From the NCBI GenBank assembly GCA_002773335.1, contig PFBH01000014.1, positions 8,023-72,022 on the forward strand: 64,000 nt of DNA. Reading direction: 5' to 3'. Shown here one piece after another: positions 28,286 through 51,282 of the stretch. The stretch comes from Candidatus Kaiserbacteria bacterium CG10_big_fil_rev_8_21_14_0_10_45_20. Its GTDB lineage: Bacteria; Patescibacteriota; Minisyncoccia; Phycocordibacterales; Phycocordibacteraceae. The translations under genes were made by a program, and so were the position numbers. The notes below the pieces were generated by a model. It was given only the letters and a program-made list of their open reading frames with translations, searched no databases and was not told where the DNA came from. Numbering within the stretch: the first letter of the stretch is position 1; each line of letters opens with the position of its first letter.

Positions 28286-28314
28286 CAAAAAAGACCCTCT
28301 CTTTAGGGTCTTTT

Positions 28315-29001
28315 TTAATATGGGTACTGTTCTGTGTCAGAAAGCTCTTCCTCTAATATTTTTGCTGTTGATGTATTTACAAAGTCTTTGTAGTTGCTAT
28401 TTGGAGTTGTTTCAAATTGTTCGGCGATAATATCTGACTCAAGAAGTCCTCCCCACCGGTTTGCTTCGGTAAGGTCTTGAAGAGAAGACCAAGGATATGA
28501 AAACTCTTTATTTTTCCAAGCAGACAGTTCACGGGGGTTTCTATGAATATATGCTGAAAGGTAGAGTAACTGTTTATTATCTTTTACGTGCACCGATTTA
28601 AAACGGCCTTGAAACACATGACCAGAAAGATGGTGACGTGTATTCATATACATCGTGTGAGCAACGAGGATTCGTTGCATATAGGCACTGATTCCTCCCG
28701 GGATCTTTTCGCGAACAAGGAGGTGGAAGTGGTTAGGCATAAGACAAAAAGAGGTAAGCTCAACAAAACGTGACTGCAAAACCTCAGAAAGCTTTTTTTC
28801 TGAAACGGGAAACCCAGTGAGCGCGTTGTAATTTTTTATATACCGCGTGACATTTTCAAACTGAATTGGTGACTGGAAGTAGAGGATGGAGAATAAAAAA
28901 CGCCGGCGATCAATATCATCTTTAAAAATATTTCCTCTACGCGAACCTCTATTGAAAATGTGGTAGTACTCGCCTTCAGCAATATTGCGTTTCTGAGTCA
29001 T
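28315..29001 (-). CDS. tnpA: HuH Y1 tyrosine transposase (IS200-like TnpA / REP-associated tyrosine transposase-like)
   Basis: HuH motif in CLMPNHFHLLV and catalytic Tyr region LSAYIHRNPRE. The N-terminus YYHIFNRGSRRGNIFKDDIDRRRFL is typical of this family. The start was chosen as Met17 of the track ORF, so the gene does not run into the palindrome. Confidence 0.65.
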   Translation of the reverse strand: MTQKRNIAEGEYYHIFNRGSRRGNIFKDDIDRRRFLFSILYFQSPIQFENVTRYIKNYNALTGFPVSEKKLSEVLQSRFVELTSFCLMPNHFHLLVREKIPGGISAYMQRILVAHTMYMNTRHHLSGHVFQGRFKSVHVKDNKQLLYLSAYIHRNPRELSAWKNKEFSYPWSSLQDLTEANRWGGLLESDIIAEQFETTPNSNYKDFVNTSTAKILEEELSDTEQYPY

Positions 29002-29016
29002 ATCTTTTTTGAGTGT

Positions 29017-29056
29017 AACACAAATGTTGGAGACCCGGGTCTCCAACATTTGTGTT
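29017..29056. repeat. Perfect 40 bp palindrome AACACAAATGTTGGAGACCC|GGGTCTCCAACATTTGTGTT (transposon end hairpin or REP-like)
   Basis: Seen directly in the sequence. No second copy in the window. Confidence 0.8.
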
Positions 29057-29153
29057 GACAGTGTTCATTCACTTGTGTATTCTGTGCATCAAGCTCGTGT
29101 GGGCTCGTGTATAGCGAGCTTTTTTCATTCGGGTACAAATTTATTGCACAATC

Positions 29154-32143: not shown

Positions 32144-32680
32144 ATGAGCATTGTTCAAGAAAGACAAAAAGAAGGATTTAAGACACTCAAAGATACATTT
32201 GGATACTCTAATGTATTTCAGTCGCCACGCTTGATAAAGGTGGTTGTTTCAACAGGTATCGGCAAAATAAAAGACAAGAACAAAATTCAAACCATTCAAG
32301 ACAAACTTGCCCTCATTACGGGTCAAAAGGTTGCACCACGCGGAGCAAAGAAATCTATCGCTTCTTTTAAGGTTCGCGAGGGAGACATTGTGGGGTATCA
32401 GGTAACGCTCCGTGGAAAGAGAATGTACGACTTTCTCGACAAAGTTATTCATATCGCGCTTCCCCGAACTCGGGACTTCAGAGGCCTTAAGCCAACGGCT
32501 ATTGATGAAATGGGCAATATGACACTTGGAATCAAAGAGAATACCATCTTTCCTGAAACGACTGACGAAGACTTGAGAGATGTGTTCGGCATTGCGATTA
32601 CCGTTGTTTCAACGGCAAAAGACAAAAAAGAGGCAGAGGCATTTTACCGGCACCTCGGCTTTCCGCTCCAGAACGATTAA
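32144..32680 (+). CDS. rplE: 50S ribosomal protein L5
   Basis: Conserved L5 core (FGYSNVFQSPRL...). Confidence 0.9.
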   Translation: MSIVQERQKEGFKTLKDTFGYSNVFQSPRLIKVVVSTGIGKIKDKNKIQTIQDKLALITGQKVAPRGAKKSIASFKVREGDIVGYQVTLRGKRMYDFLDKVIHIALPRTRDFRGLKPTAIDEMGNMTLGIKENTIFPETTDEDLRDVFGIAITVVSTAKDKKEAEAFYRHLGFPLQND

Positions 32681-32701
32681 CTCTTATCGTCTCTATTTTT
32701 A

Positions 32702-32740
32702 AAAACCCCGCCAATCTATTTTTGATTGGCGGGGTTTTTG
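32702..32740 (+). terminator. Strong rho-independent terminator (15 bp GC-rich stem AAAACCCCGCCAATC / GATTGGCGGGGTTTT, then T run)
   Basis: Seen in the sequence directly after the rplE stop. Confidence 0.75.
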
Positions 32741-33203
32741 CGACTCTAGCGAGGTTTTATGGTAAGAAGTGGCTTAATAAAAAGCCCTCAATCGCCTAAA
32801 ATGCGTAGCGTTTTAGGCGATTAGGCATTAAAAAACCTGCCCTTTTTGCCCTTGTCCCCTTAAAACTCCCCGCATGCGGTGAGTTTTTTAATAATAAAGA
32901 AATAAATACAGAACCGAATTCCTCAACAGAATCTCGTCATTTTAGGTGCGACCGCATCTAAAATGACGAGATTGAGGATAGGTTTCAGTGAGGGCGTGTT
33001 TGAAAATCCACCCGAAAAATTTCAACTGTTTTATTTGTGCTCTGGTCCCTGTGCTTTGTGTTTTATTTGGTTTTTTGGACTTCTGTGTTTTGCGCTTTCT
33101 CTTTCTAAGCACTAATAACTAATTTTCTCATAACTCATACATCGTATTTCATTTCCCCCAGCTAATCCCTAATTCCCTAACAACCTAAAATCCTAGTTTT
33201 TCC

Positions 33204-33232
33204 TTGACTCTCTACCCCTTGGCTGTTACTAT
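33204..33232 (+). promoter_or_regulatory. Sigma70-like promoter: TTGACT, 17 nt spacer, TACTAT
   Basis: A near-consensus -35/-10 pair with a 17 nt spacer, about 170 nt upstream of rpsN. A structured, GC-richer 5' leader follows (33260-33400). Confidence 0.5.
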
Positions 33233-33402
33233 GCCCCCAGCTTTATAAGCGCCTCTTTTTTGCTCTCTATGGGCGGAAGAGCGCTCAAAGGCTGAAAACC
33301 CTCCTGATTCGTCGGGAAAGGTTCACCGAAAGTGAGTAAACCTTCTGGTTGTATGGGGCTTAAGCCTCACTGCTCACGTTTCGCTCGATACATTAATTTA
33401 CA

Positions 33403-33672
33403 ATGGCAAAAAAATCACAAATTGCACGAAATGCAAAACGCGTTCGCCTTTCGAAACGGTTTGCAGAAAAAAGAGAAACGCTAAAGAAAGCTGGAGACTA
33501 CGAAGGTCTGCAGAAGCTTCCACGTAACGCAAGTCCGGTGCGTATTAAAAACCGTTGCGCAATCACCGGTCGTTCTCGTGGGTATATGCGCCTCTTTGGC
33601 CTTTCACGAATCCAGTTCAGAGAGATGGCAAACCGTGGCGAGATTCCGGGCATTAAAAAAGCATCATGGTAA
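33403..33672 (+). CDS. rpsN: 30S ribosomal protein S14 (long, non-zinc form)
   Basis: 89 aa, [28 protein letters not shown]. Confidence 0.9.
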
Positions 33673-34061
33673 CAGATCCAATCGGAGATTTTATAACGCG
33701 TCTTAAAAACGCAGGAGCGGTGCGAAAAGCATCAGTCTCTATTCCGTACTCTAAATTAAAAGAGTCTGTGGCGCTCGCACTTAAAAAGTGTGGGTACGTC
33801 GGTGAGGTTTCAGACACAGGCAAGGGAGTTGAGAAACAGTTGGTGGTAACGCTTTTGTACCACAAAGACGGATCACCTAAAATTACTGATGTAAAACGCA
33901 TTTCAAAGCCGGGCCGTCGTCTGTACGCACAAGTAAAAGACGTTCACCCTGTTCGGTACGGTAAGGGGGTGATGATTCTCTCAACACCGCGAGGAATCCT
34001 TACTGATTCAGAGGCGCGCAAAGTGCGCGCCGGAGGCGAAACCCTCTTTACGATGTGGTAA
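33666..34061 (+). CDS. rpsH: 30S ribosomal protein S8
   Basis: [13 protein letters not shown]. Confidence 0.9.
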
Positions 34062-46495: not shown

Positions 46496-46549
46496 CCACC
46501 TCCACAATCACAAATACCCCTTGCGGGGTATTTGTGATTGTGGAGGTGG
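46496..46549. repeat. Perfect 25 bp-stem hairpin that also copies the last nucleotides of ssrA plus its terminator. It is a direct repeat of 46827-46879.
   Basis: CCACCTCCACAATCACAAATACCCC-TTGC-GGGGTATTTGTGATTGTGGAGGTGG. The right arm recurs exactly at 46855-46879. Confidence 0.8.
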
Positions 46550-46869
46550 AAGGTGGCGTCAGCTCACTCAGTATTTTGTTTCGCTCGATAGTTCGCTCAC
46601 AAAATACTGAGTGGCTCCTGCCCGGGCTCGTCCGTCGCAGGGCGGCATGACTCCGCCTTTCATTCCCCCACGAAAGCCAAGCAGTTGGCTTTCTCCACTG
46701 CGTTTGAAATCTGTTAAGCGCTCGCGACCCCGGCTCGGCTTTTCTCTTTCGCAGGAAAATACAACGAAAGAGAAATATACCTCCGCCCGGTTCATTCCCC
46801 ACGCACAGTGCGCAGGCACTGTGCTCCCACCACCCAATAAAAATACCCCTTGCGGGGTATTTGTGATTG

Positions 46870-47257
46870 TGGAGGTGGGGGGGAATGAACCCCCGTCCGA
46901 AAAGGGTCTTTGGGACGACTCTACAAAGCGTAGTTCTTTTTTTCACCGTGAAGTGAATTTAAGTATTAGTGTATAAAACGAACAAAAGAAGCTAATACCG
47001 AGCTCTCAATTTTCGAGAAGTTGTACGAGCAAAAAACTTCCTTATTCCGACTATATTACACCGGGTATCTCACTGTCAGAAAGAGTGAGATTCGATGCTG
47101 CTTAGGCTAAAGCGTAAGCAGGAGCACCTACGAACTGAGCGTAAGGGCTCTTAACAAGTGATTTTACACTTTGGGTTACTCGAGATTTTAGGTGTTCTCG
47201 AGCATTCACCGCTTTGCACGAAACAAAGGTGACCTTCCGTCAAAACTAGTCACCCCC
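46870..47257 (-). ncRNA. ssrA: tmRNA (ssrA), standard one-piece form
   Basis: The minus-strand 5' end GGGGGTGACTAGTTTTGACGG matches the tmRNA consensus GGGGnUGA...UUCGACGG. The 3' end GGACGGGGGTTCATTCCCCC-CACCTCC-A is a T-arm plus acceptor strand that pairs with the 5' end (one G.U pair). An internal tag reading frame ends ...GAPAYALA-TAA. A terminator hairpin follows immediately. Located just downstream of smpB. Confidence 0.8.
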
Positions 47258-50741: not shown

Positions 50742-50816
50742 CCGCCCTTAGCTCAATTGGTTAGAGCATCTAGCTTATACCTAGAAGGTTTCCTGGTTCG
50801 AGTCCAGGAGGGCGGA
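50742..50816 (+). tRNA. tRNA with anticodon UAU (Ile, reading AUA), no encoded CCA
   Basis: Acceptor stem CCGCCCT/AGGGCGG, D-arm GCTC-AATTGGTTA-GAGC, anticodon arm TCTAG-CTTATAC-CTAGA, T-arm CCTGG-TTCGAGT-CCAGG. The variable loop appears to be 6 nt, so the fold has one irregularity. Confidence 0.6.
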
Positions 50817-51282
50817 CATGATAGAGAAAAGCAAACTGCTTTGCTTTTCTCGATACATGTCCGAGCCGGAGCCATGTTTTTCCAGCAGGAAAAACAGGCG
50901 AGGCGGGGTCGCGGAATTTTGCGAGTGACTGACGAGCAAAATATCCGTGACGACCAGACAGAAATATCCCGCCTGCGCGGGATTTTCTGCGTCAGTCCGA
51001 GGCACAGGGTTGTGTGAGTTTGAGCGAAGCGAAAGGCGAACACCCCGAGCCGGGGTCACCACAAGAGTACTTCTATTTCTCTAATTCGATGACTCATAAG
51101 AGAAATTGGTCGCGCGAAAAATTTCCGTTAGGAAATTTATTTGTGACGACCAGATACAAATATCCCGCCTGCGCACTGTTTTTGTTTACATGTCCGAGCC
51201 GTACCACACGGGCACTTCACAAACGTGTGCAAAAAATCATTGTAGTGGCAATAACACATAACATCCTATATCATAGCTGTAT

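Follow-up and report, generated by a model that had tools for sequence, protein, structure and literature searches.

The 722 nucleotides (nt) between the ribosomal protein genes rplE (L5) and rpsN (S14) in Candidatus Kaiserbacteria bacterium CG10_big_fil_rev_8_21_14_0_10_45_20 are very probably arranged as a terminator, a spacer, a promoter and a structured leader. The core of this leader is likely an operator for ribosomal protein S8, encoded by rpsH directly after rpsN, and the leader probably serves in S8 autoregulation of rpsN, rpsH and the genes downstream. The window analysed here is a 64,000-nt stretch of contig PFBH01000014.1 (assembly GCA_002773335.1, positions 8,023 to 72,022 of the forward strand), and coordinates refer to this window. 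Its gene order is rpsC-rplP-rpmC-rpsQ-rplN-rplX-rplE, then the gap, then rpsN-rpsH-rplF-rplR-rpsE-rplO; rplE ends at 32680, rpsN starts at 33403, and no convincing open reading frame (ORF) lies between them. A first-pass annotation, made from the letters alone, had noted a gap of about 720 bp. Seven contigs of this species, assembled independently from ENA, JGI and Logan data, contain the gap at 99.8% identity or more, and it is therefore not an assembly artefact.

A candidate S8 operator in the rpsN leader

Feedback of S8 on the spc operon by mimicry of ribosomal RNA (rRNA) is established in Escherichia coli, with experimental evidence from E. coli and Vibrio cholerae (PMC10931766). Regulation of spc in Bacillus subtilis and other species is unknown, and phylogenetic study of it has not advanced, according to the same 2024 review (PMC10931766). 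The S8 determinants in helix 21 of 16S rRNA are the invariant A642, the (G597-C643)-N641 triple and the U598-A640 pair, and purine 595 stacks on the Watson-Crick pair 596-644, as A595 on A-U in E. coli and as G595 on C-G in Thermus (PMC4176348). The E. coli 16S strands read A595 A596 G597 U598 C599 and G639 A640 U641 A642 C643 U644. The E. coli spc operator reads G3 G4 C5 G6 A7 [A8 A9] C10 U11 G12 ... C79 [A80] A81 G82 U83 C84 C85 C86, where A8, A9 and C5 are bulged and G12-C79 is paired (PMC3616713). The corresponding elements of the window are as follows.

33204..33232, plus strand: predicted promoter of the unit beginning rpsN-rpsH, with -35 TTGACT, a 17-nt spacer and the extended -10 TGtTACTAT
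33239..33402, plus strand: rpsN 5' leader, about 164 nt, beginning with the conserved AGCUUU and followed by a hairpin (33248-33285), the S8-like operator and two to three further hairpins
33290..33327, plus strand: S8-site mimic (candidate operator), supported by covariance model R3, covariation and mapping to E. coli 16S rRNA and the spc operator
G33290 and G33291: paired with C33326 and C33327
C33292: bulged
U33293: paired with A33325
G33294, A33295 and A33296: paired with U33322, U33323 and C33324
A33297 and A33298: bulge, equivalent to 641-642
C33299 and C33300: paired with G33320 and G33321, equivalent to 643-644 / 597-596
A33319: equivalent to A595
C33301 and A33318: mismatch
33302-33317: capping hairpin

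All of the S8 determinants are found in the window leader, and their strand order is that of the E. coli operator, bulged C included. The asymmetric internal loop, in which two unpaired nucleotides (641-642) face purine 595, takes the form GAA[A/U A]CC ... [A]GGUUC in 8/8 taxa with this leader type. The equivalent of A642, an A before CC (A33298 in the window), is kept in all eight of these leaders, in which the strand order is permuted relative to rRNA, and in 13/13 leaders of native order described below (column 30). In the permuted type, G597-C643 and the neighbouring U598-A640 around the 641-642 bulge correspond to invariant CG and AU pairs. The 596-644 pair is Watson-Crick beside a purine 595, as G-C with A in the window type and as AU, CG or GC with A in the native-order type; with purine 595 it would form a base triple.

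The leader family was spotted by eye and then modelled. A covariance model was made in three rounds; the first, from three sequences, was too narrow and missed the window, and two rounds of re-alignment gave model R3. R3 matches 33285-33328 (46.7 bits, E 2e-10), its sole significant match in the window. It has one match per taxon in eight taxa, each immediately upstream of rpsN (E 2e-10 to 3e-12). Matches in the relatives' loci, here numbered with L, are in L169, L171, L008, L088, L090, L091 and L092 (E 3e-12 to 2.5e-10), and L011 carries a weak ninth variant. Across about 877 kb searched on both strands, nothing else fell below an E value of about 0.07. The motif common to the close relatives is (A/G)GGC-GAA(U/A)ACC-N-[5-6-bp hairpin]-N-A-GGUUC(C/A).

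Covariation in the eight-taxon alignment follows the proposed structure. All cells (100%) are paired and 5/5 cap-hairpin pairs are compensatory, while the five core pairs (GAA/UUC, CC/GG), the bulged A/U-A and the unpaired A are invariant. The alignment scores 0.63 for covariation and shuffles score 0.19, none of 500 shuffles is as good, and the score collapses when partners are slid; with related taxa and an alignment fitted to the model, these figures are supportive and not proof. An invariant internal loop between freely covarying helices is the signature of a protein-binding site.

Folded alone with ViennaRNA, the core shows GG/CC, the bulged C, U-A and CC/GG as proposed, and the AA bulge lies one position further 5' (UGA/UCA, AA, ACC/GGU). 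The operator register given here is that of the covariance-model alignment. By our own reading, not from a fold, the same register ambiguity exists in genuine helix 21 (GAUACU/AAGUC). A possible native-order site further downstream in the window (AGGU-UCAC...GUGA-GU-AAACC) was rejected, as it needs a 2-nt bulge and is not present in L169. One variant within the species touches the operator: the 528-nt contig L007 (position 151) has C33299A, reading GAAAAACC instead of GAAAACCC, with CC shifted by one position. This change, like the variants in H1 listed below, could be a real polymorphism or an assembly error.

Promoter and leader form one conserved block. The promoter TTGACT-17-TACTAT had been recognized in the first-pass annotation; it also has TG one base upstream of the -10, as in extended -10 promoters of sigma-70, and is predicted to be of that kind. 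It is aligned in L169 (CTTGACTCTC...TGGTAGTAT), and similar promoters are found in L171, L088, L091, L092, L090, L008, L168, L011 and L012. In a global alignment, homology to L169 begins at 33196 (GTTTTTCCTTGACTCTC...) and runs to the AUG, so that the block 33196-33402 consists of promoter plus leader. The sequence AGCTTT follows the -10 in 16 loci. The leader folds at -55.5 kcal/mol (z -2.85), aligns with the L169 leader over its full length and is indeed GC-richer, as had been noted, at 0.485 against 0.35-0.42. The gaps of the nearest relatives (L168, L169/L170 and L171, then L008 and L088-L092) are 102-340 nt long, 102-273 nt in the closest, and consist of promoter plus leader, preceded by a terminator-like hairpin in L169, L168, L008 and L088. 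L168, L169/L170 and L171 are those at 78% L5 identity; in L172 the contig ends 149 nt after rplE, before rpsN, so its gap is not measurable.

Other interpretations of the leader were considered. Helix P1 (AGCUUU/AAAGGCU), from the minimum free energy (MFE) fold, was not taken as conserved; it competes with the lower stem of the operator, shows no covariation, and has different partners in L091, L092 and L090. Rfam 15 gave no family match on the leader (E up to 10) or on nine relatives' loci (E up to 0.01), and ARAGORN found no tRNA or transfer-messenger RNA (tmRNA) in the gap. Two resemblances proposed earlier fell to chance level. The motif TTCATTTCCCCC, which had been linked to ssrA, occurs once in the window, its supposed copies in the ssrA region carry one to two mismatches, and 11 matches were reached by 3/100 shuffles. 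The 20-mer thought to resemble tRNA-Ser has no counterpart elsewhere with up to three mismatches, and the 11-mer that it shares with tRNA-Ser has an E value of 8.8; this stretch is the leader hairpin GGGGC-UUAA-GCCUC. In L012 and L168, leaders that are otherwise dissimilar end in an identical GGCGCGAAAGUAUGGC across the start codon, and L168 retains the AGCUUU start and the upstream hairpin of the window leader type without the S8-like core.

Other rpsN leaders and the case for S8

The S8-site core recurs in a second type of rpsN leader. A native-order descriptor was taken from the literature core (R-N-G-U, a tight hairpin, A-N-A-C-N', with N and N' paired), and all loci were scanned. It has 170 matches in 1.75 Mb; the 200 nt upstream of rpsN account for 17 of them, where 2.15 would be expected; for the permuted-order descriptor, 13 matches lie upstream of rpsN against about 1.7 expected. 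Carriers of the native-order type (type N) are more distant relatives. In 9/17 of these loci S14 is matched over its C-terminal half alone (short form), and the rest are untyped.

Type-N leaders have the form GGAUUAU-N-A-GGGAG-N-AAGUC-hairpin-GAUACU-GCUCC, a near-literal copy of helix 21 in native strand order. They were seen in L036, L038, L044, L045, L047, L056, L059, L073, L075, L103, L106, L107, L112, L116 and L117, at 21-128 nt upstream of rpsN starts that were assigned by script, some of them possibly mis-set. The hairpin loop has an invariant UCU (CAUCU or AUUCU). One example reads GGGAGU-AAGUCAUUA-CAUCU-AGAUGAUACU-GCUCC, and L036 reads AAGUCAG...CUGAUACU, identical to E. coli 595-601/637-644.

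Among 13 distinct type-N sequences, A595 and A642 are invariant, G597-C643 is GC in 13/13 and U598-A640 is UA in 13/13. Pair 596-644 covaries (nine AU, three CG, one GC), and position 641 is U or A. Ten of the 13 pairs are compensatory, 91.7% of cells are paired, and 0/500 shuffles reach the covariation score. Looser variants that deviate at 596-644 (L084, L062, L051, L030, L033 and L042) were left out of these counts. The two leader types thus place the same seven-nucleotide core before rpsN in different helix contexts, which points to the core itself as the functional element, with S8 as its known reader.

A third, very short leader occupies the last ~60 nt before rpsN in L014, L015, L024, L063, L065, L071, L096, L099 and L104. 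A promoter-like TTGAC...TGATAC(A/T)(T/C)T, whose -35 often falls within the last part of rplE, leads into ACGCUCCUCGGAGCU, which is followed by a U-run and the AUG. This leader resembles an attenuator or a hairpin that stabilises the 5' end, and these nine loci showed no S8-like core.

Several observations weigh against an S8 operator in the window. Position 641 is A (U in rRNA, and A also in the E. coli mRNA site), and 596-644 is G-C. The isolated core is not unusually stable (z -1.2), the alternative register ACC/GGU is preferred thermodynamically, and MFE folds pair GGC with the 5' AGCUUU, in competition with the lower stem of the operator. Between the operator and the AUG lie 78 nt, and the hairpins in this stretch do not keep their structure in L169. 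Because the taxa are phylogenetically related, the shuffle statistics overestimate their independence. The S8 of the window retains Y87, S106 and T107, aligned with the RNA-contact residues Y85, S105 and T106 of E. coli, but in its S-T-S motif the third position is Pro in place of Ser. The descriptor alone is unspecific, with 170-180 matches per 1.75 Mb, so the S8 argument is carried by positional enrichment and by the pattern of conservation. All functional claims on the leader, S8 binding among them, are drawn from sequence.

These observations leave some room for a leader core that is a regulatory or structural RNA and does not bind S8, its likeness to helix 21 being coincidental. It could bind S14, L6, L18, S5 or L15, sense a small molecule, be processed by an RNase or stabilise the mRNA through its fold. 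The number of chance descriptor matches and the long distance to the AUG fit such an RNA, as do the 5' AGCUUU and the upstream hairpin, which are also conserved. We consider it rather unlikely nonetheless. Two structurally different leader types keep the seven-nucleotide core while their surroundings covary, the native-order type agrees with E. coli helix 21 letter for letter over the AAGUCAG strand and its partner, and S8 is the sole spc-operon protein with an established operator of such shape.

Control by S8 would act on the first two genes of the downstream unit.

33403..33672, plus strand: rpsN (S14), PF00253, long form without zinc cysteines, opening the downstream unit
33666..34061, plus strand: rpsH (S8), PF00410, the proposed repressor

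The rpsH start overlaps the rpsN stop by 7 nt (AUGGUAA), implying translational coupling of the two genes. In the proposed mechanism, the upstream unit (rpsS...rplE) would stop at hairpin H1, with hairpin H3 as a backup (both described below), and the extended -10 promoter at 33204-33232 would drive rpsN-rpsH-rplF and the following genes through the structured leader, with transcription beginning near 33239. S8 in excess over free 16S rRNA would bind 33290-33327 and lower translation of rpsN; the overlap of its stop codon with the rpsH start would pass the effect on to rpsH and the genes coupled behind it. In L171, L091 and L092, 5-8 nt separate the end of the operator from the AUG, so direct ribosome occlusion is plausible there, as in E. 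coli; the distance is 33-78 nt in the window, L169, L008, L088 and L090, where additional hairpins of low conservation lie in between. With its operator 78 nt upstream, the window would depend for repression on a stabilised leader fold, on ribosome entrapment or on decay of the mRNA.

The rplE-rpsN junction and its spacer

The junction between rplE and rpsN is commonly broken in relatives of this bacterium. We gathered 80 species representatives and 80 metagenome loci by L5 similarity, and 110 relatives have both genes. The distance between the genes ranges from 1 to 2659 nt (median 631), with 17/110 below 100 nt; in E. coli it is 14 nt. A promoter-like site of the form TTGACN-(15-18)-TANNNT lies within 300 nt upstream of rpsN in 75/110 relatives, against 4.2% of background 300-nt windows, and in short-gap taxa its -35 is inside the end of rplE. 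A promoter-bearing break between rplE and rpsN is the norm in the class Paceibacteria/Parcubacteria. Thus the earlier statement that L5 and S14 genes are normally adjacent is right for E. coli and not for the present lineage, and the description of the gap as an insert splitting the operon is misleading.

The junction is also a hotspot for unrelated cargo genes. Those found include an OMP decarboxylase and a C39 peptidase (L023), a methyltransferase (L072, L083), an SPFH/Band-7 protein (L075) and NADAR (L020). A 675-aa unknown protein, duplicated 170-aa unknowns in L062 and many proteins of unknown family were also observed, and cargo-bearing gaps include L010, L011, L020, L021, L023, L062, L072, L075 and L083. 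It is an evenly balanced proposition that rpsN leaders in much of Paceibacteria form an undescribed family of S8 operators with two circularly permuted architectures, next to an insulated junction that serves as a tolerated insertion hotspot. In that proposal the rRNA-like order goes with lineages of short S14, and the order resembling the E. coli operator goes with the Kaiserbacteria-like clade of the window. The terminator/promoter junction would then tolerate insertions of unrelated genes in an otherwise rigid ribosomal-protein cluster. In these reduced genomes the cluster is split into separately promoted units, with a variable insertion hotspot between rplE and rpsN.

Upstream of the promoter, the gap of the window consists of a terminator and a spacer rich in hairpins.

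32144..32680, plus strand: rplE (L5), an ORF of 178 aa that closes the upstream transcription unit; its product is 100% identical to L5 of Candidatus Kaiserbacteria bacterium CG10_big_fil_rev_8_21_14_0_10_45
32701..32739, plus strand: H1, predicted intrinsic terminator of rplE, a 16-bp perfect inverted repeat with a 7-nt loop, then TTTTT
32740..33195, plus strand: species-specific spacer of about 456 nt, without a counterpart in the closest relatives
32790..32822, plus strand: H2, a 15-bp hairpin (repeat I5), no U-run, -23.7 kcal/mol, z -6.8
32862..32887, plus strand: H3, a second terminator-like hairpin (repeat I8), CUCCCCGCA/UGCGGUGAG then U6, -10 kcal/mol, z -3.6
32930..32973, plus strand: H4, a 21-bp hairpin (repeat I1), no U-run, extended by CCUCAA/UUGAGG, -36 kcal/mol, z -10.4
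33000..33195, plus strand: pyrimidine-rich tract upstream of the promoter, GC skew -0.34 to -0.42, AT skew -0.15 to -0.29, not in L169

Intrinsic (Rho-independent) terminators are recognized in sequence as a GC-rich stem-loop and a U-run after the stop codon, and H1 has this form. It is 20 nt past the rplE stop, has the core stem CCCCGCCAAUC/GAUUGGCGGGG, then UUUUU, and folds at -28.6 kcal/mol (z -8.2), which bears out the strong terminator of the first-pass annotation as a prediction. H1 is symmetric (A-tract, stem, U-tract) and could therefore act in both directions; because its U-run pairs with the A-tract, it was missed by a simple terminator scanner. At the position of H1, a different hairpin and T-run are found in L169, L168 and L008; L172 has a hairpin without a clear T-run, and L171 has none. 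Within the species, L002, L003 and L005 have C to T at about 32709, in the 5' arm of H1, where G-U replaces a G-C pair. The two transcription units are probably kept apart by H1 and H3.

The first 300 nt of the gap hold four strong hairpins (H1-H4), and the entire 64 kb has just nine perfect hairpins of at least 11 bp. The fold of the whole spacer has a z score of -8.5. Two long hairpins had been reported in the gap; both exist, as H2 and H4, and the position given for H2 (32798-32825) was about 4-7 nt off. Their supposed kinship did not hold up, as they have little in common beyond the 8-mer CTAAAATG, for which the estimated chance probability is about 0.04. H3 was absent from the earlier list. 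Directly upstream of the -35, at 33165-33196, four (C)CCTA(A)-like repeats stand 8-9 nt apart (AATCCCTAATTCCCTAACAACCTAAAATCCTAG); they are absent from L169 and might be a factor-binding array.

The spacer has no detectable relatives. The gaps of relatives at 78% L5 identity are just 102-205 nt. Comparison of the spacer with the gaps of 59 relatives (blastn, nhmmer) gave no match, and a search with the whole gap gave a weak match to the L008 leader alone. No segment of the gap is repeated elsewhere in the 64-kb window, H4 has no exact match in viral contigs, and the spacer contains no strong promoter on either strand. The two largest gap ORFs have no Pfam match, and gap ORFs show no similarity to those of relatives' gaps. 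Scans of genome contigs and metagenome contigs and a protein search found no relatives with L5 identity between 78% and 100%, so conservation of the spacer is judged only within the species and at or below 78%. We read the spacer as lineage-specific filler at an insertion-tolerant junction, without detectable conserved function; the lack of a conservation signal is not proof of no function. A hairpin spacer of 460 nt looks ordinary here. The autoregulatory leader suggested in the first-pass annotation is well supported for the 3' ~200 nt (33196-33402), where promoter and leader are conserved in relatives and the covarying core reproduces the S8 site.

The spacer could be the remnant of a mobile or repeated element (REP, or an IS200/IS605-type hairpin moved by a Y1 transposase) or a decayed cargo gene. 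This concerns the spacer alone and is compatible with an S8 leader downstream. The spacer is missing in the closest relatives and was hence gained here or lost in all of them; it has GTTTTT on both flanks (32734-32739 and 33197-33202) and lies at a junction where relatives carry cargo, its four long hairpins are crowded into 270 nt, and a Y1_Tnp gene lies 3.7 kb upstream in the same ribosomal-protein cluster. Such an origin is possible but unlikely, given that no part of the spacer has a second copy in the window or a match in viral contigs, that there are no notable terminal inverted repeats, that the 6-nt T-rich direct repeat is weak evidence, and that the spacer ORFs lack Pfam matches and are unlike the cargo ORFs of relatives. 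Like REP/RAYT and IS200/IS605-derived elements, H2 and H4 are long, near-perfect extragenic palindromes with a Y1 (IS200-like) transposase gene nearby in the window. Unlike such elements, which are expected in several copies per genome, they are single-copy within the 64 kb and have no ends in common, and nothing seen here connects them with the transposase gene.

The Y1_Tnp gene (IS200-like transposase, PF01797, E 1.3e-10) is at 28315-29049 on the minus strand, between rplB and rpsS in the S10 cluster. A 19-bp perfect palindrome (29017-29056) covers its start and is unrelated in sequence to H2 and H4. A promoter-like TTGACA...TATTCT is found at about 29056-29084, and a terminator-like hairpin follows rplB at 28287-28316. 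In L171 this site upstream of rpsS likewise holds a Y1_Tnp gene. With the break between rplB and rpsS, the ribosomal-protein cluster of this lineage has at least two cuts.

Alternatively, the spacer could encode a small RNA of its own or, in ORF 32963-33115 (50 aa, hydrophobic C-terminus), a small membrane protein. This would fit the very stable spacer fold, a weak promoter-like site at 32774-32802 (9/12 matches) and the hydrophobic tail of that ORF. We regard it as very unlikely, since the ORF starts within the H4 stem and has no Pfam match, the spacer is unconserved beyond the species, a strong promoter is lacking on both strands, and Rfam gave no match even at E 10 save terminator look-alikes. 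The earlier suggestions of a small RNA or a mobile remnant are thus neither borne out nor refuted for the 5' ~460 nt, which has no Rfam match, promoter of its own, repeat in the 64 kb or counterpart in close relatives.

Three other features of the window were noted. A tRNA-Ile gene with anticodon UAU was found by ARAGORN at 50742-50817; in most bacteria the AUA codon is read by a lysidine-modified CAU tRNA. A 25-bp perfect hairpin (46496-46549) is situated about 320 nt past the 3' end of the minus-strand tmRNA gene (46867-47257). There are also three TTCATTCCCC-type 12-mers (46659-46670, 46791-46802 and 46878-46889), of which one is within the 3' end of the tmRNA and the others are close by on the opposite strand; they may be duplicated pieces of the ssrA end, for example old integration scars.

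Relation to known S8-binding and ribosomal protein leaders

Ribosomal protein leaders in Rfam (L10, L13, L19, L20, L21, S15), together with 20 candidates from Eckert and Weinberg (2020, PMC7247131), share with the proposed operator of the window the principle that a ribosomal protein recognizes an rRNA-like structure in its own mRNA leader. A text search of PMC7247131 for rpsN, rpsH, S14, uS8 and "protein S8" gave no such leader candidate, and our literature searches found no description of an rpsN leader or a break between rplE and rpsN in Candidate Phyla Radiation (CPR) bacteria, which is a statement about what those searches found and not that none was ever published. Rfam scans, at the gathering score for the whole window and at E up to 10 for the gap, gave only sub-threshold terminator look-alikes at H1 within 32600-33500. 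The first-pass annotation had held that a clean Rfam hit to a known leader might explain the region; this could not occur, as Rfam 15 gives no match on the E. coli S8 operator itself, and a missing match is therefore uninformative. The two leader types are new RNA motifs for annotation, neither of them matched by an Rfam family.

If the proposed family is real, it would be the first S8 feedback control outside Gammaproteobacteria and a natural case in which a protein-binding RNA core has been transferred to another helix topology. The covarying S8-site mimic before rpsN-rpsH in CPR bacteria offers a concrete candidate operator in a second, very distant lineage.

Both leader types resemble the S8 site in helix 21 of 16S rRNA (E. 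coli 588-603/635-651). Helix 21 shares with the window the core of A595, G597-C643, U598-A640, N641, A642 and a Watson-Crick 596-644; the window version is circularly permuted, has A for U641 and is sited on an mRNA leader. Type-N leaders have the same strand order as helix 21 and both its lower and upper stems.

In yeast, the uS8 homologue autoregulates through the RPS22B intron, by inhibiting splicing via an rRNA-like stem with two bulge loops (PMC13232506). The proposed leader would be alike in self-regulation by the uS8 family. The yeast element is unlike it in being a eukaryotic intron that acts on splicing, and there is no sequence relationship.

The candidate operator of the window also resembles the E. 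coli spc operator (Fu et al. 2013, PMC3616713), each being a helix interrupted by two bulge loops. Both have a 5' strand GGC-GA[AA]C-N, a 3' strand N-[A]-R-GU-C-CC, a loop that caps the 645/594 side, the AA bulge and the bulged C below the core, and both are on the mRNA that encodes S8, with downstream genes translationally coupled. They differ in several ways. The window core has one extra A-U pair (and a U-A pair), 596-644 is G-C and not A-U, and the cap is a 16-19-nt hairpin in the window's type against a 66-nt coding stem in E. coli. The E. coli operator overlaps the rplE start codon inside a polycistronic mRNA, whereas that of the window lies before rpsN, 78 nt from the AUG, in a true 5' untranslated region with its own promoter. 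The E. coli type of S8-interacting RNA is confined to Gammaproteobacteria according to that study (PMC3616713), and the window leader is not counted in this family because it is found in a different phylum, downstream of rplE and behind a promoter of its own. The likeness is one of analogy or convergence and not of demonstrable homology. The mimic before rpsN-rpsH suggests that the same protein-RNA recognition was recruited independently, at another gene boundary and in two strand topologies.

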